Positions 2,107 through 61,709 of a stretch of 64,000 nt of DNA are shown piece by piece; the first letter of the stretch is position 1, and every line of letters begins with the position of its first letter. A model generated the notes under the pieces. The model saw only the letters and a list, made by a program, of their open reading frames with translations. It was not told the origin of the DNA and ran no database searches. The translations under genes and the position numbers were made by a program. Source of the stretch: Halocafeteria seosinensis. Its lineage: Eukaryota. The stretch covers positions 62,001-126,000 of the forward strand of contig LVLI01000118.1 in NCBI GenBank assembly GCA_001687465.1, given 5' to 3'.

Positions 2107-5100
2107 ATGGCTGAAGATGAAGGCCATGTCATTTGCCCCTCCATTGACGCCGTCTACCTCAGTCAATTACGGCGCATCATTCATACAGCTACATATCACG
2201 TGTCTGATATAAGCCCAGGATCTGCTCAGAGATTGCTCGATAAAGTAAGTCTCTACCAGTTCTTGTATCTGCTGGCTGGTCTTTGGTTTACGCTCTGTAT
2301 GTGTGTACCAGCTCGACCAAGGGGGAGATGACCAAGTCTCACAGAGAATTGGCGTCGTGAAGCGCTGTCTGGATTTGGTACTATGTTTGGAGGGCAAACC
2401 AGGGTCGTCAAATATTGTCCCTGGTGGAACAAGAATCAGGAAACCGAATCGAAGAGACATGGAATCGTCGCAGAGAATGGAAGCGCGATACTCACGAATG
2501 GTTCAGCAGCAGCAACAGGAAGCGAAGCACGACAAGACTCCCATACTGGATTGGTTTGATTATACTCTCGGTCTTTTGACGGTATCCTTTTATGACAGGG
2601 ACCAAATTTTCCTTCAGAATTCATCAGTCATTTGCGCTAATGTAAGTCATCCTTCCAACTTTACAAAGTGGGTGAGATCCGTTTTGAGTCGAAATCGGAA
2701 AGGATACCCTCTGTGGTGTGGTGATGTATCGCTGGATGGCCCAATATTAACAGTTATCAGAGATTCTATCACACGACAAGGAGCACCCGAATCTGCCAGA
2801 CTTGACGACGAGAACAAAGCAAGTAGTCGATCCATACAGCTTGCAAAGTTGGGGGAAGTTATATCCTCGAAGTTTCGGAGACGACTCTCCGGGCACATTG
2901 ATCTTTTAACTTTAATGTCATTTGTTGAAGCGTATCCTCAGTTTCAAGTTATCTCAGCAAGTACTAAGTCAGAAGTATCCGTAACGAAAGTGCTACAAGG
3001 TTACTGTGAATGTGGTGCTCCCCACAAACCTGCCGTGACATCAAGATACCAGCGTCGTCATCTTTCTCAGGTTTGCTCCCGAACCCTATCCAAACTCAAT
3101 GTCAGATTTCGACGATGGATTCGGAAAACCCAACTATACAAGTCTCAATTATCGTTTGTTGCTGCGGATATGCCGAACGAAGGATTCGTTTCCTCAGCGT
3201 GGAGTGGCTATGCTGTCGATAGTGAAGATCACACTGCCTGTTTCAGCAACGACTATTCCCGTGCGACGGAAGACACGAATGAGCTTAGTCGTATAAGAAG
3301 TCGATATCGCCGTCCTTTTGCAAACAATTTCTCGGAACTTCTTTTACCTCAGCATATTTCCGAATATGTTGCTTCCGTGAGTAGTACCGCACAATCAGAG
3401 ACATGGAAAGTCATGAGGTTACAGCACTATTTTGCATCGCTGGCCTTCTACTGTTCACAATATGTAGGACGTTCAATAAGTGTGACTTTGTCTGAAGGCA
3501 AATACAATGTCGCCTCTGTTTTGGTGATGAATTCATTTTTGGCGGAAGCATACGATAAGAGTTCCGGCATAGAAATTCCTCTTCAGACATTTCCTTTTGC
3601 TACCTTGAACCGGATGGTGGACTTCATCTTTCAGGAAAAGTGGCTGACAACAGCTGGGAACCACTCATCCGATCATTTGTTGAAGTTGTGCCAATACAGG
3701 AAAGAGGACAACAGCAAGCTGATGTGTTGTTGCGTTAGCAGAGTAGGTGACAGTCCGACGTTGACGCAGGATGTGGCATCCGAGTCTCTTGCGCAGAGCA
3801 TGTCTACAATAAAAGGGCTACAAACGTTTCCATTGGAAAAGAATAAAGATGACATTGATTGGAGAGTCTACCTTCTCTTGGTTTATTGCGCTGTTACAAA
3901 ACTCGCATCGGAAAATTCAAAGGATGGTATCGGTGTAAAGCTTAGGCTACGGCAACTTAGGGGCTACCTCAATGATAGAAAAATCAAGTGTCCCGGAAGC
4001 TTACCGGGTGTTCGAGAAGACCTTGTGAAATCACTCACATTTACATTTATTATGGATTCGTTACCGTTCGTAGAGCTACATCAGGAACAAAAGCCATATA
4101 CAGTTGAGTTAAAGCAGCAACCGCTTCGCTTGGGTCGTGATCTGAATATTATGCTTGAAGCATCGAGCGATGAAACTCAATTGCGCCACGCAGTATATTC
4201 CGAACTACCGAACGATGATAAGCAAGTAATTGAAGAATGGTTTCAGACACTTTGCCGGCAACTGCTGCTACTCTCCACTCCTCTTTTCCAGGATAAACAT
4301 AACATCGAAAATGTTAAAAAAGTTGCTTTAGAGCGGGTAAGAAACATTGATGCTAGAGGAGGCGAACCACTCTTCCTTGACGATATCGGCGCTTCAAGTG
4401 TGGTCTTGGTAACTTTAGTACAATCGCTCGAGAATTCCGAAGCGCGCACGTGGTTAAAGTTGAGCAGTGTAGAGGAGACATTACAAGGATCCTGTCGTAT
4501 AACATTTCCACGGGACAGGAAATTGGCAGATTTTATACACAATTATTGCCACCGTCGGCTTGAAATCTGTGAAGAAAAGAACGAAGCTTTCGTTCGATCT
4601 CGCCCGCTTCACTTTTCTTCGGACTCTGCCACATTTCTACCAGGCGAAATCTCTGTGAAGCCTCCAATGGGAGAGCAAGACGTTCTTGATACATTTTGCG
4701 GCTTTTTAAGGAAGCTCCGCTTGGATGGAAGCCATGGCGTCTTCATTGAATCGTTATTATCACTTGCACTTGGAGGAGAACTCGACATGAATGCTTGGGC
4801 TAATGTATATGAGTGGGTGACACAACAGCCATGGTGCCATTTGTCGTTTCCCACGAAATCCTTCTGCTCAGCATCAGTGGTATTGTTTTCTGAACATGCG
4901 CTGAGTTCTGTACCGCAGTCGTTTCGTGAGGTTGGTAGAGGAAGTGGCGGTGAACCGAATGCAACTTACGAAGGCGGCCATGCGACGGAACAGACTGTTC
5001 TCTCTTCCACTGGTTTACCTTCGAGATATTATATTTATGGGGAAGGAGTCGGTATTGAAGAAGATCTCCATCACGAATTCAAGGGAGGTTTTACAGGTGG

Positions 5101-6208
5101 TGTTCACAAGGCTATACTAAACATTGCACCTAGATACGTAGTGGCGTACCTGAATGCCTCCGGAGGAACGCTGTACTTTGGAATCACTAATGAAGGCACT
5201 GTTCACGGGGTAAAACTCTGTCGTGCAGATAAGGACGCAATAAATTTGGCGAAGGACTCGATAGCGCAGGTATGTATTGTATTCGCTGATTCGGTGGGAG
5301 TTTTATGACTGATCTACATGAACTTGGTTCTGTGTTTGCGCAGAGAATAGGGCCTCAGGGAGTACTTTACCTAATAGACCATCCTGTTTTCATGCCCGTC
5401 TTTCGCAGGCTGTCCCACGCGAGTCAAGACGGCAGTTACTTTGAGGGACTACCAAACACTTATGTGATCGAACTGAATGTTAGCGCCAGTCCGAACCCTA
5501 GTGTACTTCACTATGAAATACGATCCAACGTCCCTAAGCGTTCGGGGAAGGACATCAAAGATTCAGCATATGTTTACTGGGTACGACAGGCGGCTAGCGT
5601 TCGCGCCATGAGCGACCCGCAAGAGATCGCGGAGTGGGCATTTGGTAGAGGAAGAACCTACGGTGGTGCTACAGATAGACATAGTCTGCATATCTCCCGA
5701 TTGAACGAAGCGCCGACCAGTCTTCCCGGTAATAGCACTTTACAAGAAACGTCCACCACGACGAATGCTGAGACGAAGTCTTCTTTGCCTTTATCCCCGG
5801 ATGAGAGTAATCCGCAATATCGAGAAGTTGACATTGCGCTTGCCCCGGAACACGGGGTTGCTTGGCAAGTGCCGTCCGATAAAAGGCTCAAAGACAGCTT
5901 TGGTAGCAATACAGTGCTGACTCTACGATTATCTCAAACTCCATTGAAGAATGTAGGTGCATTATTCCGCAAACATTATCTGAATCAACTTTATTCACTC
6001 CTGGTTGTGTCCACAGGGAGTTGGACTGGTCGTAGAATCGTTAGGTGGAATTCTATGTAAGACCCAGATTATTTGCTCGGGTGCACTACTGTTGGAAGTA
6101 AATGGCGAAAGCGTGGAGAAACTAAGGTTGAATAAAATCCGGAAAATTCTGGCTCCCGGGAAGATAAGAAGACTTAGATTTTTATCACCCTTGCCTCGAG
6201 AATCGTAG
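2107..6208 (+). CDS. ~1298-aa protein with winged-helix/LOTUS-like repeats, a Schlafen/AlbA_2 domain and a C-terminal PDZ-like region; exons 2107-2244, 2312-5269, 5344-5952, 6017-6208
   Basis: Three phase-0 GT-AG introns join four ORF-track fragments in frame. AlbA_2 motifs: EEDLHHEFK, YVVAYLNASGGTLYFGITNEGTVHGV, YVIELNV, YWVRQAAS. C-terminal LLLEVNGESV..L..IRKIL resembles PDZ. Confidence 0.8.
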
Positions 6209-6445
6209 TTATGCAGTGCGGAGAGCGACCGTCAATTTTCAGCAGTCTGTGGGCACCTGACCAAGTAGAGTGGGTAGAAGAGTCGAATCGGGTATTCTGC
6301 TCCTCCCTAACGGGACAAACAAATAGTACAAACCCTTCGTATATTCCTGGAAATTCTGGCTCGCGGAAAACAGCTAGACTTAAATATTTATCGCGTGTAC
6401 TTGGGGAATCTTAGTTGTGCATTATGGAAAAGGACCTGTCAACTT

Positions 6446-7228
6446 TCAGCAGTCGGGCCAACAGAACGAAAAAACACGACAAATTATTCGTGGAATCAAC
6501 GTGCCAATTAAGAAGCCCATCCTGAGCAACTCCATCGTCGCTAGTAAAAGAATATCTACAAATACATACCTGTCGCATATCCTTAACTTTCGAACCACCG
6601 GAAAGACGTACGACAACACATGTAAAAAATATGCATCCGCGCCATTGGGATGGGTCTTTGCGTTTCCGTACATATGGTTGATACTGGAATTCAGAAGCAA
6701 CACCGTAAAGTACAAAATATTTTGCGCATACTCCCGAAACAACCGCGAAACACAACGTTGAAAGTACGAAGCCAACCCATCCGGATTTGTCTGAGCTTCT
6801 TGGGACATATATTGGATTCCCACTGTCGCTTTGTCATCAGCGCTTGTGGAGATGTCTCTTCGTCCATCGCACCTCGAATCTCGCTGTTCCTGGCGTGCTC
6901 TTGAGGCACGTACTAAATGTCGTACAGTTCCATGCGATGCAAACGGCGAAGGAAGAGGTCTTCTAGGGGTAGGAAGAGGTCTTTTAGGGGTACCAGTAGG
7001 ACGAGGTCTTATAGGGGTTGGACGAGGAGTTGACTGGCTTGGTCCAGAATTTTCATTCAAACGCTGATGCTCTGACCCTTCGTGTGAATCGCGACGACGA
7101 CGAAAATGTGTTTCTTCGTCTTCACTGCTTAGAGAAGTATCACTCTCGGGCGAGATACCCACGCATCCAAACATGTCACTCGGACGTGCAAATAATGGAT
7201 CCGTTTGATCTTCTCCTATGCTGTCCAT
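6446..7228 (-). CDS. Hypothetical protein with acidic/Pro-rich N-half and hydrophobic C-terminus (first ATG 7228; frame open to 7501)
   Basis: Long ORF filling the space between neighbours; low-complexity S/E/P-rich segment followed by hydrophobic helices. No family recognised. Confidence 0.55.
   Translation of the reverse strand: MDSIGEDQTDPLFARPSDMFGCVGISPESDTSLSSEDEETHFRRRRDSHEGSEHQRLNENSGPSQSTPRPTPIRPRPTGTPKRPLPTPRRPLPSPFASHGTVRHLVRASRARQEQRDSRCDGRRDISTSADDKATVGIQYMSQEAQTNPDGLASYFQRCVSRLFREYAQNILYFTVLLLNSSINHMYGNAKTHPNGADAYFLHVLSYVFPVVRKLRICDRYVFVDILLLATMELLRMGFLIGTLIPRIICRVFSFCWPDC
6951..7027. repeat. Imperfect 21-bp tandem repeat (GGAAGAGGTCTTNTAGGGGTA-like, about 3.4 copies) encoding Pro-rich repeats on the minus strand
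   Basis: Units at 6951-6971, 6972-6992 and 6999-7019, plus a partial unit at 7020-7027. Confidence 0.85.
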
Positions 7229-7798
7229 TATGCACCTGTTGACCAGTCCTACACACTGTAATTGTTGTTGTTGGTTTTTTTTTTGTTTTTGGTAACTCTC
7301 ACGCTGTAACCAGGGTAGGATAGTCGAATCAGGTACTCTGCTCTGGAGCGTGGGAGAAAGAAATTGTACAAACTCTCCGCTTGATCGAAAGTAGAAGAGT
7401 GGCTGGCCCGCGTACAACTCTGCGCTCGCGCAGTGGTCGCAAGTCCGGTCGCAGCAGGTTCTGTTTATACTGGCTATCCTACGAGCATTGTAATACGACA
7501 CGGAATCATTGCAAACGGATAAGATTCGTAACGTTTCTTGGTAGCTTTTGGCTTGAAATTAGAGGCAGAAGAGTGCCACAACAAGCTAGAGACGACCTCA
7601 GTCGCAGCAGCACCCATTGAGTGTAGGGGTGCATGCCTCCATCGCGTGCCAGCGTTGATTAATGCTCCATGGTAGCAGTGGTGGTGCATTAGAAATCAAT
7701 GACATCGGTGAAGAAAAGCATGTTCAGGACTCGTTGAACAGCTGTAGTGTGGAAGGCAAAGCGCTTCACCCGCGCTCCCCAACGGAACTATTTGAGCC

Positions 7799-9334
7799 AT
7801 GGATGGATTCCTGCTGTTTTCAGCGGTCAGTGGAAGCTTAGTATGGCACTTTGTAAGTCAAAGTTAAAGGATTACATATAAGTCGTGGAAATTTTGAATC
7901 TTTGGGCATCCCTACAGCCTATCAGCGTGAACTATGGACTGCCATACTGTCCTGAAGAATTGTCAAGAACTACCAACGGGGTGCAACACAAGGAAGAACT
8001 TAACCTAGGCTCGTTTCTTTATGCGGTGCAAGCGTACGCATCTGATATTTTCACAGAAAGTGCTAGCGAGCTTACCATAACGGAGGAACCGTCCATGCGA
8101 ACTGTAGATCTTCAAGGGAAGCGGATCGTCTTTTTTTCGTATGTCGCAACTGGCGAGTCGTGCTTGGCCCCAGGTCTCTCCAAACAAATTACAGAGTGGG
8201 ATCAAAAGCTGGAAGGATGTCATGCTAGCGTGTGTATGTCCGCAAGTCTCATTCTTGACCCAACCAGCCAATGAAGGATTAAGGACTGTACTATCTCAAG
8301 CAATGGGGTTACTTCTAGAATACGTTCAACAATATCCGCAACACGTTTTCGGAAAACGGATAAAGCGCACCCTCATAGACCATTTTCTGGGAACCCTGCC
8401 TTTGCAACTGTTAAGCTGTTTGAGAAAAAAAGTATCTGATGCTTTTCTACCAAATTTCTCACGTTCAAGTGAAAACGAAACCGTATCCGACCGTAGCGGG
8501 TGGGAAAACGTACGGAGTGCTGAAACTGTTGACGGTACCGATGAAGCAGTGCAAGCATCTGATACGTGTTCTACTCCCCCAACTCTAAAAAAGTGCATTG
8601 GAGCTATAATGGAAGACCATAGAGAAGCTTTGAATGAGACTGATCCTAGCAGGCAGTTTCTGGTTGTAGTGCTAAATGAGTCAACCATGAGAAGCAGTGT
8701 GCAGAGTCTGCTGCAATCAGCACAGCGTCCTTCCGAAGGATCAAGTGTTCTTCCAGCTCGCCCTGGAAGAATAGTTAGAGCCGGAAGAAGGTTCAAAAAC
8801 ATGTTCACCGTCTTCAGATCGAGGGATAAGGCTTCTGGCGAGAATGCTTCCTCTGCTGCACACTTCAGGAATCAGAAACTGTCGCTGCGGCCTCGAATTG
8901 AACTCGTGCAGCAGCAGAATGACATGAAAGAGTTTACACGTACAGCGCTAAATGGGATGGTCTCCCTCGATGCCCGATGGAGTGAGGTCGTCGACTTTAT
9001 CTCCTCGAAATTCCCTGTCATCCAGCAGCTACTAACAACGAAGCTGAGAACTTCTGTACCAGCTAGTGAAGTAGGGTGCCAGTACCACCTACTCATTTTC
9101 CCTGATGTTAATTCGTCGCTGCTTGTTGAACCTGTGCTGGTGATAAAATCGACACATTGGATCATCGTCACGTTGGACCGATCAGTTATGGAAATGAGCC
9201 TAGAAACAATTAATGAGGATCCGTTGATAAGGATTCCAAATGGTCAAAAATTGAGTTTAAATTTCCTATACAGTGAGCTTGACGCGATAGGCGACATGAC
9301 AAGCAACTGTTTCAAGTTAGGGAGATTGTTGTGA
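7799..9334 (+). CDS. Protein with longin-like N-terminal domain; exons 7799-7852, 7918-~8152, ~8229/8247-9334
   Basis: Exon 1 MDGFLLFSAVSGSLVWHF|gtaagt splices in frame to PISVNYGLP. The strand-turn-strand start, helix NLGSFLYAVQAYA and strands MRTVDLQGKRIVF fit a longin pattern. Second intron boundaries are uncertain. Confidence 0.6.
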
Positions 9335-9420
9335 TATCAATGTAACTAATGAAATGTATGGACTAGCCGTGCACTTATAGGAGAGTCCGTTTTGGCTTCA
9401 GAAGAGGTACTTTACTCAGG

Positions 9421-10697
9421 CTACTCCCTGGAAGTTGTTCCATCTTCTCTAACTACAAATTTCCTGGGTGCGGACTTTGTGGTGGCGTGCTCTGGCTTCG
9501 TATCTTGTGGCGGATTATCACTAGGTTCGCTCTGATGGACGAAATCGTAAGACTCATCAGACTCTACGTGAGCCTTGGATGCATGCTCTGCTGGTCTGTA
9601 CTTCGTTGAGTACACCTCCCCAAATTCTTTCAGTAGATCTTCAGTGTCGTCCGCCCCTGAGTAAGTCGTGGTCGGTGCTCCCTGTGGGTCATATGATGCC
9701 ATTTCCGCCTCCAGGCCGCTAATTTGAGCAAATTCTTCGGAGGCAATATGTAAAGCCTCACTGAGTGTTTCAGCCTCCTTTTTATATTGTTCCATCATGG
9801 CTTCAGCCCTCTCTTTGGTTCCAATCTCTGAACGCCATTTGGAAATAGCTTGTTGTGCTTGGTTTTTCGAATTGGCAGCTTTCTGAATCATACAGGAGTT
9901 GCACCATAATGCTAGCTTTTGAATAAGAGCATCGGGTTGCTTTTCCTTACCTTTTGTTCAGCTTGCACTGTCGCCTCCAAACGCTGCACTTCCGCGGTGT
10001 ACGATTCTTCGAGGATGCCGAAGAGAGAACGGGCATTCAGTAAACGAGCAATCGCGAGCACGGAGGTATCTGTAAGTGTACCCATTGAACAGGCGAATGA
10101 GTGTCATCCAACATAGCGTACAGCCATGTCGCCGTAGGAAGTCAACTTACGTAAGAACCACTTGGAATTCCACATCCTCGTTAAGAACAAAATAATTCCT
10201 AAGAGGGCGCACAGTTGTCGAAGTACTAACCATTTCTTGGACTCCGACGTAGTTGCCATGATAATAGCAGTGAGAACAATATCGAAAACGCATACCAAAC
10301 TTGAAACGTAGCCCAGTAGATATAGCGGCCAATCCAACACGAGAAAAGTCTTTTCCAAATATGATGAATCTGTTTCACGACTCAGCGAGTGTACTTTCAG
10401 TACAAGCCAAACCATAGTTCCAAGAAGATCCAAAATAACGAAGGCTACCGTCGTTTGCTGCCATCCAATAGATTGTGCTACAGTTCCAAGTTTCTGCAAA
10501 AAACTCTCGTCGCTGCTATCGTCATCATCCTTCTCTTCTGGTGCTTCGTCTTTCGTGTGATGGTCCTTCAGACTGGTGCGTTTCCTCTGGCGAAGTTGGG
10601 AAGAAGACGGAGCCTCAGTCTCCCTTCCGGCTGCACTGGGTGCAGCAGAGCCATTCTCTTGCTCCGCTGAACTCTTTTCTGTAGACACTTTCTCCAT
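9421..10697 (-). CDS. 4-TM voltage-sensor-like (Hv1/TMEM266-like) protein with C-terminal coiled coil; exons 10697-10151, 10069-9951, 9882-9421
   Basis: Phase-consistent introns 10070-10150 and 9883-9950. S1 WQQTTVAFVILDLLGTMVWLVL, S4-like VLAIARLLNARSLFGIL, then a heptad-rich helix. The start may lie further upstream. Confidence 0.6.
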
Positions 10698-11302
10698 AAG
10701 TGTTTTCAAATCTGTATTTCCAGCGCTCCAGTGCTCCTCTGCAGTGTAACCCGTTGCTTTCTACCAACAGCGGTAGTAGTGCCAACCAAGCACCGTGGAT
10801 TAAGAGGCCTTTTCCAATAAATTAACTACAATATACTTTGTTTCTATACACAGAAAGAGAATTTCATTACATGCGTCTAGCAGTGGAACGTAGCAATTAC
10901 TTCGTATTGCAGTACGGCAGATCAAGTAACCAACCAGTCCTACCACGCAGTTCCCATCCATACACAACTTAAAACTACCGAGCAAAGAAAAGCATGAAGA
11001 AAAAATCACTTCCATTCATTCATTCATATTCTGTCATAGCCTACTCATAGGGCTGATTTTGTTGAAGTTGGGCAATTTGGGGTTCATTGTCCGGCCCGGC
11101 CGGCACCGTCCGGGAGAAAGGCCCGGACCGGCCCTGAGACGTTCTTAAAGGTCCCTTATTGTGTAGGTATTGTTCTCTACACGTTTCTGGGTCATTTACG
11201 GTGCTCGTTCGTAGAAAGACACGTTCGGTCATCTGTACGTTACTGCGTAGAGGCTGTCCTATAGAGGAAACTCTGGTTCTGAAGAGTGGAAAACGCTAGA
11301 GA

Positions 11303-14300
11303 ATGGAGAAAGAGGGGGAATATAGCGCCCAAGATACTGAGTTTCTACGGGCTATATCAGCTCTTGCTGATATCCATTTGAGTATTCAACCTGCTCAAAA
11401 GAAAAAGCTTTTCGGTCTTTATAAGCAGGCCATGGAGGGGGATGTCGGAGAGTCTCCACCGGCTAATAATGTGATCGAAAGACGTGAATATGAGGCCCGC
11501 GTTGGCTTCCGCGGCATGAGAAAAGAAGAAGCGAAGCAGCAGTATATTGATACTGTCGACGGATTAGTGAAAGAGTTACACGGTGGAGACAGTCGTGGGA
11601 TCCAGGAGTATTCTACGACGATCGATGGGGAAGAGAAAGCAGGTGATGAAGCCGAGGAAGAAGGAGAAGATGCCTCCGACGGCAATGGTGCCAGCATACC
11701 ACCAGGGGAACATGTCATGCGGCGAATATCGGATGCGGTCTTTCACGAACGTCCAGAGGAGCATGAACGATCCGACAGGCCTCTCTCTAAGGAGGGTATT
11801 CTGTACAAACAGAGAGACGTCCGAAGTGTGTGGGCAGAAAGGCTTTTTGTACTGAAAGGGAAGAGCCTGTCCTACTATCGAAGCACCAAACAGAAAGAGC
11901 CAACGAAAAAATGGATTCTTGGCTCTACCTGCAAAGTGCAAGAGCTGCCACGAGAGTTCTCCAAGTCTATGATAAAAAAGAAGTACGGCAAGTTTTTCCC
12001 CTTTGCCGTCTCCCAGCACGACATGGTTCCTCCAATGCGATTAGCAGCAGCCTCCAAAGATGAACGGTATTCTTGGATGAAAGTTATCCGTCGCGCAGCG
12101 CAATCGACAGCGGATGGACCCGCCACTCCTACCAAAAGGAACGAAGGCACAAGCGTCCCATTTTCTGACCGTCCTAACGGTACTGCGAACAAGGATAACA
12201 AGTATGCATACACCCATGAAGAGACGAACGTTGTGTCAAACGCTGAGCAAACAAGTGCAGAAATCGTTGATTCACCAATGTCAGGTGGAAGCGAAGCGCA
12301 AAATGAGGTATATCATTGCACCCTGGAAGAAATTGCGGCCCCTTATCCTCCAGAACCGTACACTAAGGACGCACAAAAAATGATGAATGATTTACAGAAA
12401 CTTGAAAAATCAAAAACAGAATGGAAGTACAGCAAAGAAAGGAAAGGAGTATATTGTTACCATGGAACCGGAGATCTCGCCGGTGCGAAGGGGACTGGAT
12501 TCGTCAATTTTTCACGCCGTGCAATACGAGACATGCTTGTCGATCTTGAAAAAAAGCCTCTTACAGATAGTAAATTTGACGATGGTCGTGTGATTGAGCG
12601 TTTGGACTCCAGATCCACCGTCACATACATGCGATACAAGGCTGTGATGCCAACTTCGGCGCGGGACTTCTGTAACTTCACCCACTGGCGTGTTGCTACC
12701 CCTTCGGAGGAAGAAGGAGGTACCTTGTATATTGCTGCCAAGAGTGTCAAACACCCCGAATGCCCCGAGGATAAGGATTGTGTACGAGCAGACTTGAAGA
12801 TCGGTGGGTGGGTAATCCGCCCTATCAAGGGGAAGAAAATTGCAGAGGAACGAGCCGCCGCGAGATCCAGAGGAGAGGATCCCGGACCATGGCCAACCGA
12901 TGTGGATATTGATTCTGAGGGATGCGAATGTACTTACTTGGTTTTAATCGATCTCTGTGGCGACATACCGGGTTTCGTCGTTGGGATAGTTACTCAGCAA
13001 CAAGCGCTTCTCGTGGCTGCTTTGCGTGAAGCCTTAGAAAAAGAATGGAAAGGAAAAGACTCGGAAATGCGGCGAATTCCAACCATTCATAACTTTGACA
13101 AAGATGATAATCCTCCGGTTGTTGCCCCTGCAAAGTCGGGCACCAAGAACCCAGGTCCCAAGAAGTCGGAAACGGAACCGGCGGGAACACTCAAGGATGG
13201 AGGAGGAGTGCATTCACAACAAAGTAGCAATGCTCCGGAAGCTGTAGGAACCGAAACCTCAGACTTAAACATACCCGGTTTGACTCAACCTCTTCCGATC
13301 GAACGGCCGCCTCATCAAGTCTCTGTATTTAGTGCCTTGGTTCTCTTGGTTCCGGCAGTGCTGGTCTACGCCTACGGTGAAATGCCATATCACTACCGTG
13401 AACAGTACCTCACTCCATTGAATTTCTTAATTTTCTTAGGCGTGATCTCGATATTCTGCTTGTTATTGTTTCGACGTCTCTGGGTCGGACCCTCCAATAT
13501 GTCTATTCGGAGAAAATTGACCATCGCCACATGGACCGCCCCGCAAGAAGGTAGGCTCACCCGTTCGTGACTAGTTCCTCTCACGATGGTGGTGACGCTT
13601 TGATTCTTTACTGGTTTGCAGGGAACATCTATGGCGCATTATCAGTGGATGTAGGGAAGGCGCGGCAGTACATCGAGGACGTTCGCACAAGGACAGGAAC
13701 GAAAGTAACAATGACCCATTTAGTGGTCAAGGCACTGGGTACAGCGCTCAGAGCATGTCCAGCGATAAACGGGTACGATACTGTCTTGCGAAAGGATGCC
13801 ATTGGCAATGTTTCATTACCTTGCTTTTCTCTTACTGCGATTACAGAAGAATTGTTGATAACGAGTACATTGAAGCTGGGCGAGTTGATGTGTCATGCCT
13901 GATCAATATCCAAGCTGAGGGAGATTCGTCGCAGCAGTTTCAAAGCCAACGCAAAGCAGACTTGGGCAATGTAAAAGTAACTGATGTGGATCAGAAGACA
14001 GTCGTAGATATTGCTCAGGAGCTTTCAGAAAAGGCTAAGAAACTACGAGCGGGCAAGGACAGCGATTTCGAGAAGACGAAGACTGCGTTGAAGGTGCGTC
14101 GGTACTACTTTTATTTCAATTCGGCGGGACTAGATTGATAGGTCCTGTAATCCTCTTGTGAACAGATGCTTCCGGTTGGTGTACTGAGATACGTAGTATC
14201 TACTGCCGGCTACCTCGGGTCTCAGCTAGGGTGCACAATACCGTTCCTAGGCGTTCGACCGTATCCTTTTGGAACTGCATGCGTCAGCTCGATTGGATCC

Positions 14301-42081: not shown

Positions 42082-43969
42082 CTAGTCATAGCGGCCCAGC
42101 AGGCCATCGATGAATGCTCCATTCAGACGATGTTCCCTCTGAAAGTTTGCGTATTCGTGTACGCGCAGCTCAACGTCGCTTACAGACGATCTGATGAAGA
42201 CGTCATAGAGTAAGTAGCCACAGCCGGTGCGTCGAATATCCATGAGAGATATGCGAAAATCACCAGTACAACTCACCCACTTCGGTTTGACCATATCCAG
42301 AGTGACTAGCATTGTCTTGTCGATAATTTCTTGGGAGATCATAATGTTGGATTGCATTAGTTTCTGTCTGTAAACCCATTCCAAGTCGGACCTGCTCAGG
42401 TAACCATCGTCGTCGAAGTCCAAAATCCGGAACCAATACCCGATACTGTGGACACTCATTGCATCTTCATGGGCAAAGAAGAACAAAAGAAATTTTTCAA
42501 AGCCAGCCCCATTCCCCGTTAGCGGAAGAACAGTATCTAATATCCTCGGATGAAGATCAAGATTCTCCACTAGTGTCAGGCTATCCTTGGTGATGATTGA
42601 TTGCTGGCTCCACTCCCCCGCCTTCTCTGAAACAAGAGCATTGCAAAAAGTCCCATAAATTGTCTCGAATCTGACGACGTTAAATGCTGGTAATTGGGAC
42701 AGCCGATTCACGGCGCACTGGTAAAAGATATCCACTACATTGCTTTGAGACAGCTTGTGTAAGGTCGTGAATTTGGTCGACACCCCTTCAAGAGAAGACA
42801 GTATACTCACGAGTACATACTTGATATAGGCTTTTCGCTTCGTAGGCTGTTTTCTAAGGGATGCTAAGTCAGGATGTCTGTCAATCAGGGCCTCGATGAA
42901 TGGCTTTAGATGCCTCCGATCAATTCTTTCCCATTTCCATTCCTCGGCAATTTTGGAACATTGGTATATTTCGTGTCCTTGACTTGTTTCTAGTGACAAG
43001 ATTTCGTCCTTTTGTGGCTCATGAATCAATTTAAGGAACTTTTCTCTTGCATTTGCACTGCAAAAATCGTCTGTGCAAAATCTCAAGAAATCTCTGAGTC
43101 CTATTCGATCATTTTCTGAAGAATTTGGGGGCTCACTATTCTCATCTTCATCCTCTGGGATCCATGGAGCTTCTCTAAATTCTAGCACCTTCTCTTGGCA
43201 CAATTGTTGAATAACGGACTTGTATTGCTTGATTCGTTTGAAAAGCACAACTCCAAAATATGCAGGGAGACGGCAGTATTGCTTGACTAGATCGCGGAAG
43301 CCCTGACACGTGGAGGAAAGCCGCCAGGAGTTCTCCCGAAAGACGGTCAACACAAACTTTGGTATATCAGTAAGATATCTCGGAACGCAAGTTTGTTCTG
43401 ATGGAAGTCCCGCGGCTCTCGGGTAAATTCTAGTTAGTTCGCGCCTGGCAACACAAACGGCCTCAATACAGCTCGTAAGTGTTTCATGCAACATTTTGGT
43501 GGTAGCACTTCTTCGTTTGACTAAGCAATGCAAGTCGGCATTCAAAAATGGGCGATTTCTGGTCGAAGGTATGATGCCAATTCTCATGTGTGTTCGCGCT
43601 TCCGCTCGATCCTGTAAAATACAAAACAGCGGCATATGTTGGAAAACGCACATGGAAAATCATGGCTAACGCCTTCTTTACCTTGCTGATAGAGACCATC
43701 GATTCCAGTACAGCCGATGACTGACAATCCACGACGTCGTACACGAATAGGACTGGCCACAGGTCAACCGGTGATCCGAGGTGTTCCGTTTCTTCTTTGA
43801 GTTCTTCTGAATTCTTGGCAACTTGGAGTATCAGAGGTAATGTTTTTGCAGCCTCCTGGTAAAGCGGTATGAGCTCCGTAGAAGCGAACAGGATCACCTG
43901 AAGTACACTCTCTCCCGAAGATGTCTTCGTCTGCATACGTGAGGAAACAGGCCGGGAATCGGACGGCAT
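42082..43969 (-). CDS. PP2A B''-like (PR72/PPP2R3-family) EF-hand protein, paralog A; exons 43969-43682, 43611-42082
   Basis: CRLPAYF, LKPFIEALIDRHPDL, FEKFLLFFFAHED, SIGYWFRILDFDDDGYLS, DMVKP...ISLMDIRR match B'' motifs in divergent form. Confidence 0.82.
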
Positions 43970-44812: not shown

Positions 44813-46967
44813 CTATTCGGCTGTCGCTGCTGGAGTCACTGGACAAGCAAGGAATTGACTAGGTGGTCGCGTTGGAATAATTACTTGCCTTTCAAGCGGC
44901 TGCAATGACGAAGAAACAAACAAATCAAATACCACAAACCCCGCTCCACTCTTCCTGATCTCAAAAGGGGATATGCGGAACTCTCGAGAAGATTGGTTGG
45001 TCACAGGATGAATAGCATCCATAAGCTTGCACATCGCGTTATGCCCCAACGTCGACGCTTGTTCAGAGGAAACACCGGCTGCAATGAGCTTCTCTCGATA
45101 AACCACCTCGAGATCCTGACGACTAAGATACCCATCATCATCTATATCCAAGGCTCGGCACCAATATTCCACACTAAGGTCGCGCATGCGGTCTTCTTTC
45201 GCTAGTAAGAACCACATGTAGTCTTCAAAATCTAATCTTCCCTGTTCACTAGTATTCAGAAGCTTAACATTGGAACGAAAAATTCTTTCCAGCACAGTGT
45301 GAGTTATGGGAAGACTCATTGCGGACTGTAGTCCTTCACGGTGTATCGTTGCATTGACTTCCTGCGTCTGTTGGCTACAGCCGGATGCTTGGCTATTAGA
45401 CAAGGCTCTCTGAAACACCTCGTGTGCCTCTTCGAAATATCTTAGGCTAAAGGGTAATACCTGGGACAACTTGCATGTAGCACACTTATAAAAGAGGTTA
45501 GCAACTCCTGACTCCCTTAGGTGCCGAGTGGGAACGCATCCCTGGCAAAAGCCGTTTAAAGAAGCAAACACACTGGTCAACACACATGTAACATATCTGC
45601 TCTTGCGCTCGGCATCCTCCCTAAGTTGTCGAAGATCGGGATGCCTTTCCACCAGTGCTTCTACCAAAGGTTGAAGATCTTCCATATAAACTCGATTCCT
45701 ACTCAAAGATGGCAGTTTTCCTCGAGTTGACGAGGAATCGTCGGTTTCCATTTCCAAAACCGTTTCGCAACTCGGTGGTATGACAGCTCTAAGAAACCTT
45801 GACATGCGCCCGCTGTACCTGACCGCTGGGGTCCAAAACCTTAGAAAGTCCCTCAAACTGATAGCAGAAGGATCCTCGGTGCTTTGCTTCCTGGTATTTG
45901 GAAATCCGGGAACACTGTCTAGACTGGTGGGAGCAAGAGACCCTCGCTCTATTAGTTGCTGTGTTAATGAGCGATACTGTTGGATGCGTCGAAATACCAA
46001 GCTGTCGAAATAGGCAGGGAACTTGCATGCTTGCTTCAAAAGTCGCCGAAAACGTGGATCTTCTGCATGTAGCTTTTCGCTTCCGTCTCCTCCGAATGAT
46101 ACGACAACCTCCTCGGGTATCTCCGCTAGGTATGATGGAGTCACCTCGCTTACTGGTGTACTCGTGGGATCTTCGACATCCTGGGCATTCATATCTACTT
46201 TCTCAATTGAGGGCGACTGAGACATTGAGATCGTGCGAGAGGGCCGAGGAAGCTCTCCACTTCCTGATGGGCTGGTGGCATCCACTTCGCCGACGTTCGG
46301 GGTCTCAATAGGTTGCAATGAGCCCATACCTTGAGACATGTTTTCCCCATGTCTACTATCGGAATGATCGCCACCTGGGTTATTAATCTGGGATTTTAGG
46401 CAATGAAGCACTACACCTCTGATATCATGCTCCGTTCGCCGAACGAGAACTCGCTCGTTAGGATGCCAGTCGTTTCTACCTGTGGACGAAATGACCCACC
46501 GTGACGCTGGAGAAACGTTCTCCTGTCCAACATGTTCAAAAACCATAAAAAATTGAATGCGTCAGAACAGCTGTATTCACCATACTCAATCTTACCTTGA
46601 CCATCTCTATCATCTGTGGAATGGCATATCCGCAACTTGGGTCGTCAATTTCGAACAAAAACACGCAGTTGGGTGGAACAGACTCAAGTAAGCATCGCAG
46701 TTCGTTGACCGATGATGCCCCTACAAGGCATACGGAGAGGTCACGGCAAACATGTGAATAATATTGTAAGAGGTCGCGGGAGGAAATAATGACCGCCGTA
46801 GGGGTATTCTCCTCGTTTATAGTTCTCGGACTTGCTTCTCGATGCGGAAACGATGGTAAACACGTGGCACTGCGGCTGCCGCTGAGGCGCTTCTCCTGTT
46901 TCGAAGCTGTATCTGACGAACCACCAAAGTTCAGCAAACGCTTAGCAGTATCTCTTAGTCTCCCCAT
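44813..46967 (-). CDS. PP2A B''-like (PR72/PPP2R3-family) EF-hand protein, paralog B; exons 46967-46596, 46522-44813
   Basis: CKFPAYF, DLQPLVEALVERHPDL, LDFEDYMWFLLAKED, SVEYWCRALDIDDDGYLS, ISPFEIRKSG. Intron position matches paralog A. Confidence 0.85.
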
Positions 46968-58946: not shown

Positions 58947-61709
58947 ATGAGTAGTCCGCCGAAGAAGAGATCGAGAAGGCCGAAGCGGTACCGATCATAT
59001 TCCCGGGGGCAGGAAAAGCTACTACGCGGGGGTCTAGATGTTTGTCCAGACCAAAGGTATCGTGGATTCTCTAAGTCCTCTCGTTCGACACATCTTTTTT
59101 TCTCCGATGACAAAGATGATACTACTGAGATTGGTGAGACTGTAACGCCCTCGGAAACAATATTCACCACGGGTGGGGAAAACAGTGAGGTGAGCGCGGG
59201 GGAATCACAAAGGCTTTCAGATAGGAAAAAGTTTCCCAGCGCTACAGAAGTTGATATAGGAAATGGACGCGAGGGTAACGCCAATGCAAACCAAGAACAG
59301 ACTTTGGTTCGTAGGGGGAGAAGTAATGCCGAAGCGGGCTGTAAAAAGAAGCAGAAGAAAGGCCCAATTGACATTGAAAAAGCAAGTCCCTTCTCAGCTT
59401 CGGTGACTAAAACTCGGAACCCTGCAAACGCGAACAAGGGACATAGCTCAAGCAATCCAAAAACTGTTGAACATTCTGAAGGAGCAAACTCAGATAAACT
59501 CGGCTTAATCCAACGACGGCAGGAAAATGGTTCGCCAGTTACTGCCGCTCCTCCCCCAACGAGCACGAGCTCCGCTACTCTACACTCGAGAGGGAAGGGA
59601 TTGTTGGTAACCCAAGACGAAAAGTATGAGGATACAAGTGAGTATCGGATAGAGGTAGATGTATGACAGTTTAGACTTTGTCCCTTCACCGATGCGTTTG
59701 TGCCCTGTGGTATGTCTTGTACAGGTCGCAAAGCAGCGTTGTTGAACTGTTTGGAAGAAACCCAGGATGTCACTCGGTACCCGAAATTACAGCTCACTTC
59801 CGAAGACAGGGGGGCAATAGAGGAGATGATCAACAACAGTGACGATGACTTAACGCATACGCGTTTTAGTGATTTCCAGTCTTTCAAATTCAGCATCCAA
59901 AGTGCAGTGGAGAGTCGGGAGAATCAGATGGTAGCGACTCTTGTTGCAATCGAGTTGTGGGAAAGAATCCTGAAAAAGATACCATCAACGCCACCAGGGA
60001 TACCTTTGGAGGCAGGTACGTTGAACTCTAAGAAGGGGAAACCAGAGTTCTTGTGAGGAGTTCTATCTTAGGTTGGTCTTGCAGGCGACAAGGGTTTCGT
60101 GAAGTTCGTCCAGAGTGTGAGACAGATGCCATACACGAAGCACGTGAAGTACCTGTCGCAATGCCAGATATGGGGAGCAGGCAATCTTCCCGATGGAAGG
60201 TTGTATGTTCGTCCGGTATATCGCAAGCTGTACAAAGTACTACGTGATGAGCCAGCTTCTACGTTGTTTACCATCGAAGGAACTCCTGGAATAGGGAAGA
60301 CTACGATGATTCCCTACATGATTTGGCGTTTATTAAGGGAGACCCCGCCACCAGAAAACATTTTCTTTTGTCCCCAGCAAGAAAACAAGCATTTCCTTCG
60401 CATTGCTAGAACTGGAGCAATAACCCGCGTCACCAAAGTAGAGCTCAAGAATCAACTGCATCCTGGCGATTATGTTCTCATCGATGGAGAAGTCGGAAGC
60501 TCTATGGGGAGCGTTTCTGGATATGCCATACGCCTGGAAAGGGTCAAAATGGTTGCCTTCATCTCCCCTCGGAAACGTAACAGGCAGTGTTTTGGAAACG
60601 AACGGCTGAAACGGAAACTAATGCCACCATGGGGGATTCAGGAACTTCTTGATTGCCGCGAACATGTGTATAAGACCATACCAAGAGAAGATGTCCTGAA
60701 TCGCTTCAAACAAGCTGGTGGTGTCGCGCGGTATGTGTTTCGTGACGGAGACTGGACACTCATCAAGTCTGAGCTATCGAAACTGGATTTGTCGACGATC
60801 CTCCACTACACGGGCGAGATACGAGAGTCGACATCAACAGACGATGGGAGGTTTCGTGTTCTGCATGCATGGCCAGATGCTGCTCATTCCTGTCCGTTTC
60901 AGTTTGAAGCGGGTATTATCCGATTTGCTTCAACTGCTGTCCAGAATTATGTGTTGACAAAGTGGGACCAACAGCAATGGCTGGAGATCCTTGAAGAGTT
61001 ATGGCAGAATACAGGAATCGAAATACAAGGATACAGGAATCTGTTCGAAACAGCATGTCACAAACTTTTGCCTCAGACGGAACCACACTCGAAACCGTTA
61101 AGATTAAAATACCAGGCTCTGGAGAAGCACCCAGGGGGATGGACACGAAGTGGGAAGAAAGCCAAGTTGCGTTTACTTAAGGCTGAGATGGTCGATTTTG
61201 GCGGCTGTACTGCCATCGATAGGCTTGTGGAGAAGTCTCGAAACATGGCCGACTTTGAAGGTGTATATGCGGACCCCCTTGAGGGGCGTTACCCTTCCGT
61301 TGACGCAGTTATCATTCCCAAAGATTTAACGCAAGCGCCGATTCTCTTGCAGTATACGGTAGGTGAAGATCGCTTATTGGACATGTATGGGGTGTTAGGG
61401 GTCTGGGAGAGTCTTAGTGGTCACTTCTCGAAACTCCCGGTATTCTACTTCGTGGTGCCTGATCATCGCCTTGATACCTTTCAGCCAAAACTTCCTAAGT
61501 ATTCGCATGGAATCAAGCAAGCAGCGGTGAAAGATCTGTTCAAGAAAATGCAATTTTACATTGTATCCCTCTGTCATGGTAAGGTTGCACTTATCCACGG
61601 TTGCCCCAGTAGCATGTTACACCTGTTCTGTCCTGCAGACAAGCTGAAGAAGCGACTCATAGATGGTACGGCTGGAAACGGAGGAACACCGTCCAGTACT
61701 AGAAGATGA
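58947..61709 (+). CDS. Crinkler/RHS-type (CR) protein: P-loop NTPase + PD-(D/E)XK-like nuclease, ~848 aa; exons 58947-59637, 59725-60015, 60085-61578, 61639-61709
   Basis: LYVRPVY, Walker A IEGTPGIGKT, MPPWGIQEL, GGVARYVF, FAS, LFETACH, YPSVDAV, LLQYTV, FYFVVP. Introns are phase-consistent. Confidence 0.85.

Follow-up and report, generated by a model that had tools for sequence, protein, structure and literature searches.

What kind of protein is encoded at positions 2107–6208 of a stretch of DNA from Halocafeteria seosinensis (contig LVLI01000118.1 of assembly GCA_001687465.1, positions 62,001 to 126,000), and what might that protein do? The stretch, referred to as the window, is 64,000 nucleotides (nt) long; positions count from its first letter and lie on the plus strand unless stated otherwise. 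An earlier note, made from the letters alone, had proposed an AlbA_2 RNase of the Schlafen (SLFN) type, preceded by LOTUS-like winged-helix repeats and followed by a PDZ-like tail. Our analysis reveals one spliced gene encoding one polypeptide with a Schlafen domain, behind a long N-terminal array of likely winged helices and ahead of a conserved tail.

The gene has four exons (Table 1), separated by three GT..AG introns of 67, 74 and 64 nt, and its spliced product consists of 1298 amino acid residues with one terminal stop. Four public runs, all from one study, hold the stretch; since none of them is recorded as RNA, their contigs are regarded as transcripts because of the splicing. All three intron joints are present in three of the four runs (run X1 is unspliced), and a single 5022-nt contig in runs X2 and X3 carries all four exons, which bears out the proposal that the exons lie on one transcript. 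Exon 2 is a single frame of 986 codons covering the winged-helix candidates W1 to W5 and half of the Schlafen domain, and the exon joints are in frame. Coding differences among the runs are limited to very few sites, three of four being synonymous. A EukProt protein of 1298 residues (P0001) matches exon 2 and the Schlafen region at 100%; it possibly comes from the same material as the window and is not independent support. The window as a whole is a compact eukaryotic region with short introns and a GC content of about 46%; its dense gene packing and scarcity of introns, together with EukProt as the source of P0001, point to a protist.

Sequence comparison places an SLFN fold, together with its motif, in the spliced protein. 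The Pfam profile SLFN_AlbA_2 (PF04326) matches residues 963–1103 above its cut-off (E 4.1e-11; 43.9 bits versus 25.3) over profile positions 1–114 of 118, confirming an AlbA_2 core split by an intron, and Schlafen chains make up 14 of the 16 best PDB sequence matches (5yd0 at E 5e-6 for the half domain). The peptide EDLHHEFK at 5060–5083 and YVVAYLNASGGTLYFGI after it were both found as claimed, and the coordinates and motifs given in the earlier note were correct as written. The resulting E-x4-E-x-K is identical to that of SLFN11 and of Schlafens from bacteria (PMC13056530), and it is kept in all three relatives that cover it, including P0005 and P0007. What had been overlooked is that the third catalytic position is Asn. 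The pairing of N1006 with D248 comes from alignment to 5yd0, with residue numbers converted via E205/E210 of PMC5862951. Asn is also found at this position in P0002/P0005, and Asp in P0007 and three bacterial relatives; an acidic residue follows in all relatives. In SLFN11, substitutions E209A, E214A and K216A abolish activity and D252A slightly raises it (PMC9482658). Because E/E/K is essential there whereas loss of the third carboxylate is not damaging, we surmise that the active site is probably competent, with the caveat of the Asn. The 1298-residue protein contains neither a second SLFN lobe nor a Walker A motif or NTPase, and no NCBIfam model matched the eukaryotic proteins.

Winged helices are likely present in the region upstream. 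AlphaFold modeling of residues 555–910 gave, at moderate confidence, three units with the order helix-strand-helix-helix-strand-strand (residues 563–646, 738–809 and 834–904). When the model was ranked against 48,161 chains, the first three places were taken by LOTUS domains aligned with W4, those of TDRD5 (Z 8.6; root-mean-square deviation (rmsd) 2.5 over 70 aligned residues), Tejas (8.6) and TDRD7 (8.3), in a ranking that counts differences of up to 1 Z as ties and in which a Z below 8 can reflect a common arrangement. Oskar (7.7), MARF1 (7.1) and NE0665 (6.7) are also among the W4 matches listed; all top W4 matches are winged helices, and LOTUS domains fill at least seven of the best 50 rows. 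The match to TDRD7 LOTUS domains 2–3 (Z 7.5) spans two units at an rmsd of 24. Among the matches listed, which W4 fills, there is no LOTUS row for W3; W3 itself is conserved in the distant relative P0007 (hhalign 97.6%). A second line of evidence is provided by P0007, in which Pfam OST-HTH/LOTUS (PF12872) matches residues 546–604 with 24.3 bits for the segment alone (cut-off 23.8) and 21.8 bits in the whole protein. This segment possesses the Ghxph motif, which, located in an insert before helix 3, defines OST-HTH (PMC2848206). The motif is missing from the aligned W2, where there is an insertion and Pro replaces the Gly, and by inspection from W3–W5, for which reason the segments of the window's protein are called "LOTUS-like." LOTUS ancestry is probable for at least some of them.

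These results bear unevenly on the winged-helix segments proposed earlier, up to four in number, a count that overlooked a further candidate at 3401–3658. The example at about 4450–4600 is a winged helix in the model with LOTUS domains as its best fold matches; the one at 2830–2955 (residues 220–260) lies in W1, which is conserved in relatives (its alignment score with P0007 is equalled by only 9 of 1000 shuffles), its fold not being established. The LOTUS call finds support for W4 in the fold ranking, ties included, and for W2 in the relative's Pfam match, and has no sequence match of its own in the window's protein. The ESM Atlas gave no usable match for the N-terminal region. A Pfam match of W4 to "Enhancer of rudimentary" (E 0.004, 31 residues, below cut-off) was dropped, as it conflicts with the model. 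A predicted helix at 4133–4160 (residues 654–662) follows the wing of W3, at the place where extended LOTUS domains carry their helicase-binding extension.

The C-terminal tail is likely a divergent PDZ domain, given three weak concordant matches and its conservation. Exon 4 alone matches PDZ_6 (E 0.009; 16.1 bits versus a cut-off of 27) and PDZ (E 0.025), both below cut-off; against a consensus PDZ design the E value is 0.95, and P0007 matches Erbin at E 2.3. The conserved block, which P0003 and P0006 share almost without change, opens in exon 3 at about residue 1188; the domain had been assigned to the last exon, and probably begins in exon 3 (about 5815). No clear GLGF-type carboxylate-binding loop was seen by inspection of the tail. 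At the 3′ end of the gene, the last codons and the stop (6138–6247) recur 207 nt downstream as a gapped copy of 74% identity (6345–6454); behind them, 68 nt at 6272–6339 have a 75% copy about 1 kb further on (7313–7379). These are old local duplications.

Relatives are few. Word-based searches gave two matches each: P0002 (46% over exon 2) and the exon-3 pieces P0003 and P0004. The contigs of P0002/P0005 and P0004/P0006 agree in length, so that these sequences likely represent one gene; their open reading frames (ORFs) stop at positions matching the starts of introns 2 and 3 of the window's gene. A profile of the N-terminal region, devoid of the Schlafen domain, matched only P0002 and P0007 among 1.84 billion representatives. 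The latter, a distant full-length relative of 1922 residues, was reached by this profile alone at E 1e-5, and holds the Schlafen domain, OST-HTH and tail in the same order within one ORF. It is collinear with the window's protein over its full length, with Ala/Pro-rich insertions, at 28% identity overall: 48% in the Schlafen domain (E 2e-61; a separate count gives 93 of 187 residues identical), 42% in the tail (E 1e-21), and with local matches at E < 0.001 for five of ten N-terminal blocks. The comparison with P0005 gives 76 of 85 identical residues in the Schlafen half-domain and roughly 30–80% in each of the upstream blocks. The layout would therefore seem to be old within some lineage and rare, with four sequence types in all, and no paralogue of the gene was found in the 64-kb window.

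Table 1. Positions of the exons, domains and residues of the Schlafen gene within the window.
Feature	Position	Strand	Residues and remarks
Exon 1	2107..2244	+	1–46; no family match
Exon 2	2312..5269	+	47–1032; N-terminal region and first half of SLFN domain
Exon 3	5344..5952	+	1033–1235; second half of SLFN domain, linker, start of PDZ-like tail
Exon 4	6017..6208	+	1236–1298, stop; remainder of PDZ-like tail
Conserved N-terminal block, fold unassigned	2336..2473	+	55–100; 36/46 identical to P0005; P0007 at E 1e-7 (one-sequence search)
W1, candidate winged helix	2741..2983	+	190–270; covers first example of earlier note; fold not established
Conserved basic block, fold unassigned	3041..3373	+	290–400; 69/110 identical to P0005; two local P0007 matches
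W2, candidate winged helix	3401..3658	+	410–495; positional counterpart of P0007 OST-HTH/LOTUS domain
W3, predicted winged helix	3860..4111	+	563–646; helices 2 and 3 separated by a short additional one; predicted local distance difference test (pLDDT) 67–87
Helical stretch predicted between W3 and W4	4133..4357	+	654–728; pLDDT 76–79 in first half, <50 in second half
W4, predicted winged helix	4379..4606	+	736–811; second example of earlier note; pLDDT 45–69
W5, winged-helix element order, low confidence	4673..4885	+	834–904; pLDDT 43–58; 6btc_B Z 6.4
SLFN/AlbA_2 domain, single copy	5021..5646	+	950–1133; interrupted by intron 5270–5343
Catalytic motif E963-x4-E968-x-K970	5060..5083	+	aligned to SLFN13/11/12 chains
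N1006, third-carboxylate position	5189..5191	+	rat SLFN13 D248, human SLFN11 D252; alignment to 5yd0
PDZ-like tail	5815..6190	+	1190–1293; split by intron 5953–6016

What might such a protein do? By analogy with known systems we would give about an even chance to a conserved, constitutive endoribonuclease of RNA surveillance or processing, resembling MARF1 with Schlafen in place of NYN. Catalysis would proceed through E963/E968/K970 and a divalent metal, as in SLFN11, SLFN13 and the bacterial Schlafens, and the predicted LOTUS-like winged helices, three to five in a row, would steer the nuclease to structured cellular RNA. The array, like those of LOTUS proteins, may bind RNA or recruit a helicase: RNA binding is known from LOTUS domains and Vasa binding from extended ones (preprint 10.64898/2026.03.28.715021), and in mouse MARF1 the LOTUS domains are needed for RNA cleavage (PMC6217404). 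Self-association or a partner would build an RNA clamp which a lone SLFN domain does not have, following the examples of PUCH, a trimer of single-SLFN proteins (PMC10567574), the hexamer RorSlfn5 (PMC13056530) and Cash, a dodecamer forming filaments (PMC13462974). In the weakest step the PDZ-like tail might anchor the complex; eukaryotic OST-HTH proteins often bear anchoring domains (PMC2848206). The likeliest job would be to degrade or process, in a regulated way, RNA of endogenous or transposon origin. More doubtful is a protist-built equivalent of MARF1 and PUCH, in which a Schlafen nuclease of the sort deployed by bacteria against phages, controlled by a LOTUS array and anchored through a PDZ domain, would cut transposon, viral or small-RNA-precursor transcripts in RNA granules.

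A close parallel in layout is MARF1/Limkain b1 (NYN RNase, RRM and LOTUS array), which also combines an RNase and several LOTUS-type winged helices on one chain. The window's protein differs in possessing SLFN rather than NYN, in the position of the nuclease after the array, in its PDZ-like tail and in winged helices that are beyond Pfam detection; Pfam gave no match to the MARF1 hallmarks NYN and RRM in the protein. SLFNL1 and the PUCH subunits TOFU-1/2 and SLFL-3/4 likewise carry one SLFN fold per chain, whereas the window's protein is much longer, has the winged-helix array and the PDZ-like tail, and shows no clear membrane helix. With mammalian SLFN11/12/13/14, its best PDB sequence matches, it shares the E-x4-E-x-K motif; unlike vertebrate SLFN5/11/12/13/14 it has no second lobe, helicase or Walker A motif, and its third carboxylate is replaced by Asn. 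Bacterial RorSlfn5, Cash and Avs9, as well as SAMD9, resemble it in having a single SLFN/AlbA_2 effector with fused modules and the same motif, but the window's protein has no known sensor or STAND NTPase, and its gene contains introns and lies in an ordinary neighborhood. A further parallel is eukaryotic Tiamat of aquatic eukaryotes, a bacterial-defense nuclease with N-terminal LOTUS domains (preprint 10.64898/2026.09.30.754977). Its GHL ATPase and PD-(D/E)xK DNase contrast with the Schlafen found here, and the portion of that preprint available to us describes no Schlafen-LOTUS fusion.

Several results weigh against a LOTUS-guided, active RNase. The AlphaFold model of residues 555–910 was built from three sequences, the best of five reaching a pLDDT of 59 (the others 49, 43, 38 and 38), and that of residues 61–915, covering W1 and W2 and built from two, was unusable (mean pLDDT 32.6). 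Foldseek, a check which the earlier note had proposed alongside AlphaFold, yielded no match to the model of residues 555–910 at E ≤ 0.001; its top rows were mostly tandem winged-helix proteins. In the fold ranking, the non-LOTUS winged helix of Polycomblike (Z 8.3) and others (7.5–7.8), of Cdt1/ORC, Pol III and ESCRT-II types, are tied with LOTUS within 1 Z. Pfam LOTUS matched neither P0001 and P0005 nor their segments, and the alignment of W2 with the P0007 LOTUS segment is not significant on its own (its score is reached by 176 shuffles in 1000, that of the P0005 counterpart by 700). A home-made LOTUS profile had no hmmsearch match in P0001; in sliding hhalign its best stretch, residues 565–649, reached a probability of 4.7%, and in a comparison by segment none stood clear of shuffles (best 3 of 30). 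This profile, built from 30 of 38 matches and confined to one bacterial phylum, is too narrow, and gives the P0007 domain no more than 3.5 bits. No similarity between segments was detected by blastp or hhalign as a sign of internal repeats. As to the nuclease, Asn replaces the third carboxylate, mutation of D248 lowers the activity of rat SLFN13 (PMC5862951), and D45N, at a position that may correspond to N1006, abolishes the toxicity of Avs9 (PMC12680541). Enzyme activity, substrate and any antiviral role are all putative.

The same data leave room for other explanations. The array could consist of DNA- or protein-binding winged helices unrelated to LOTUS, as in Cdt1, TFIIIC, Pol III C82/C34 or ESCRT-II, the protein having chromatin or newly made Pol III transcripts as its target. 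The tie with Polycomblike, the LOTUS G-motif missing from the window's protein and the top Foldseek rows, which come from tandem winged-helix proteins of Cdt1/TFIIIC/Pol III/ESCRT-II type complexes (all at E > 0.02), agree with this; we nevertheless judge it improbable, in view of the P0007 segment above the Pfam OST-HTH cut-off and of LOTUS domains at ranks 1–3 of the fold ranking and in at least seven of its best 50 rows. Only slightly less improbable is that the enzyme is weak or dead in this lineage, serving as an RNA-binding scaffold or as a non-catalytic SLFN partner in the manner of the inactive PUCH subunits. The change from Asp to Asn in P0001 and P0002/P0005 would fit, as would the assembly of PUCH from three single-SLFN proteins (PMC10567574). 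On the other hand E/E/K is intact, whereas known inactive Schlafens lack one of the three (PMC9482658), an acidic residue follows the N1006 position in all relatives, and P0007 retains Asp. That the fusion merely reflects merged neighboring genes is scarcely credible. The same contigs do continue past the stop into a minus-strand ORF, so that contigs of this kind can merge transcripts; the artefact is refuted by the single frame of exon 2, the in-frame joints, the one-ORF layout of P0007 and the shared intron positions at which the ORFs of relatives stop.

A more serious rival, though still unlikely, is a latent antiviral tRNA/rRNA nuclease modeled on bacterial Schlafens, SAMD9 and SLFN11: the array or the tail would sense a viral product, the SLFN domain would oligomerize and translation would be shut down. 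Phage-activated RorSlfn5 and Cash, in each of which one SLFN domain is joined to a sensor, have the same motif (PMC13056530, PMC13462974), eukaryotic homologs of antiphage Tiamat have often gained LOTUS arrays (preprint 10.64898/2026.09.30.754977), and the nearest bacterial relatives found have varied fusion partners, one of them a receiver domain. Against this stands a layout that is collinear and slow-changing across the four sequence types, with no paralogue in the 64 kb, where mammalian antiviral SLFNs are under positive selection and gain and lose copies (preprint 2024.01.12.575368). Nor does the protein have an NTPase or Walker A motif; its neighbors are ordinary genes, and the PADLOC models (2023 library) assigned no family to any of the five proteins at E ≤ 0.1. 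Because of the slow collinear evolution, the well-conserved nuclease domain, the apparent single copy and the ordinary neighborhood, which are soft arguments, we lean to RNA surveillance or processing over a fast-evolving antiviral effector.

The origin of the Schlafen domain may be vertical, from an SLFNL1-like eukaryotic stock, or an old bacterial transfer. Bacterial relatives are distant, with 28–29% identity (42–45 identities in 150–160 aligned residues) in the three compared, without counting a 32-residue match on L003. By language-model features the nearest Atlas clusters are SLFN_AlbA_2 proteins of 156–298 residues from molluscs (0.94, 0.92) and bacteria (0.93); two of the top three clusters are eukaryotic, mostly from molluscs. 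Searches of viral, phage, plasmid, metagenome and genome sequences gave no apparent sign of recent transfer: one of ten candidate stretches matched a viral sequence, over 12 residues only, phages gave no match, plasmid searches gave two weak SLFN matches each, and 3 of 147 metagenome and 1 of 228 genome candidates matched, all distantly. The proteins at L001:1474-2451 and L005:1226-2983 are of the bacterial SLFN type and belong to one subfamily, without a PADLOC match; one is fused to a receiver domain and one (Pirellulales) lies behind about 430 residues that lack a Pfam match.

Directly upstream of the gene lies the 3′ portion of a gene for an ABC transporter (3–1871; ABC_membrane and ABC_tran). 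Downstream, a 370-codon ORF on the minus strand (6446–7558), with a Pro/Arg-rich repeat at 6950–7027 and no Pfam match, shares the spliced contigs of the Schlafen gene up to 7253 and is probably a convergent transcript merged in assembly. It is followed by a separate spliced gene (7614–9600, plus strand; intron 7853–7917), the main ORF of which has no Pfam match and in which one base at about 8131 of the window is absent from two of the four runs. Farther along are an ORF with acyl-CoA-binding, PH and START domains (11300–13570), two adjacent, paralogue-like minus-strand ORFs with EF-hand-like motifs by eye (42082–43659 and 44813–46561), and a P-loop protein (60072–61709) that matches NPHP3_N and nSTAND3 weakly and that we take to resemble the CRN/RHS-type mobile NTPase-nuclease genes of protists.

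The domains of this protein are all of known kinds; their combination appears to be new. The literature searched, which lay mostly outside subscription journals and supplements, contained no Schlafen-LOTUS fusion or protist Schlafen, its nearest precedent being the preprint on Tiamat; AlbA_2 has been searched for in EukProt (PMC12680541), and the window's domain may sit unnamed in that tree. Schlafen nucleases have been characterized in mammals, worms and bacteria, and none from protists in the literature found. If RNA is indeed cut under LOTUS control, eukaryotes would have paired LOTUS arrays with nucleases more than once, with NYN in MARF1, PD-(D/E)xK in Tiamat and Schlafen here. The protein would then offer a single-chain system for asking what directs and activates an SLFN domain that stands alone, and the natural Asp/Asn difference between relatives is a test of whether the third carboxylate matters. 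Were the granule version true, this would be the first Schlafen-LOTUS enzyme, linking Schlafen immunity to nuage-like silencing outside animals.

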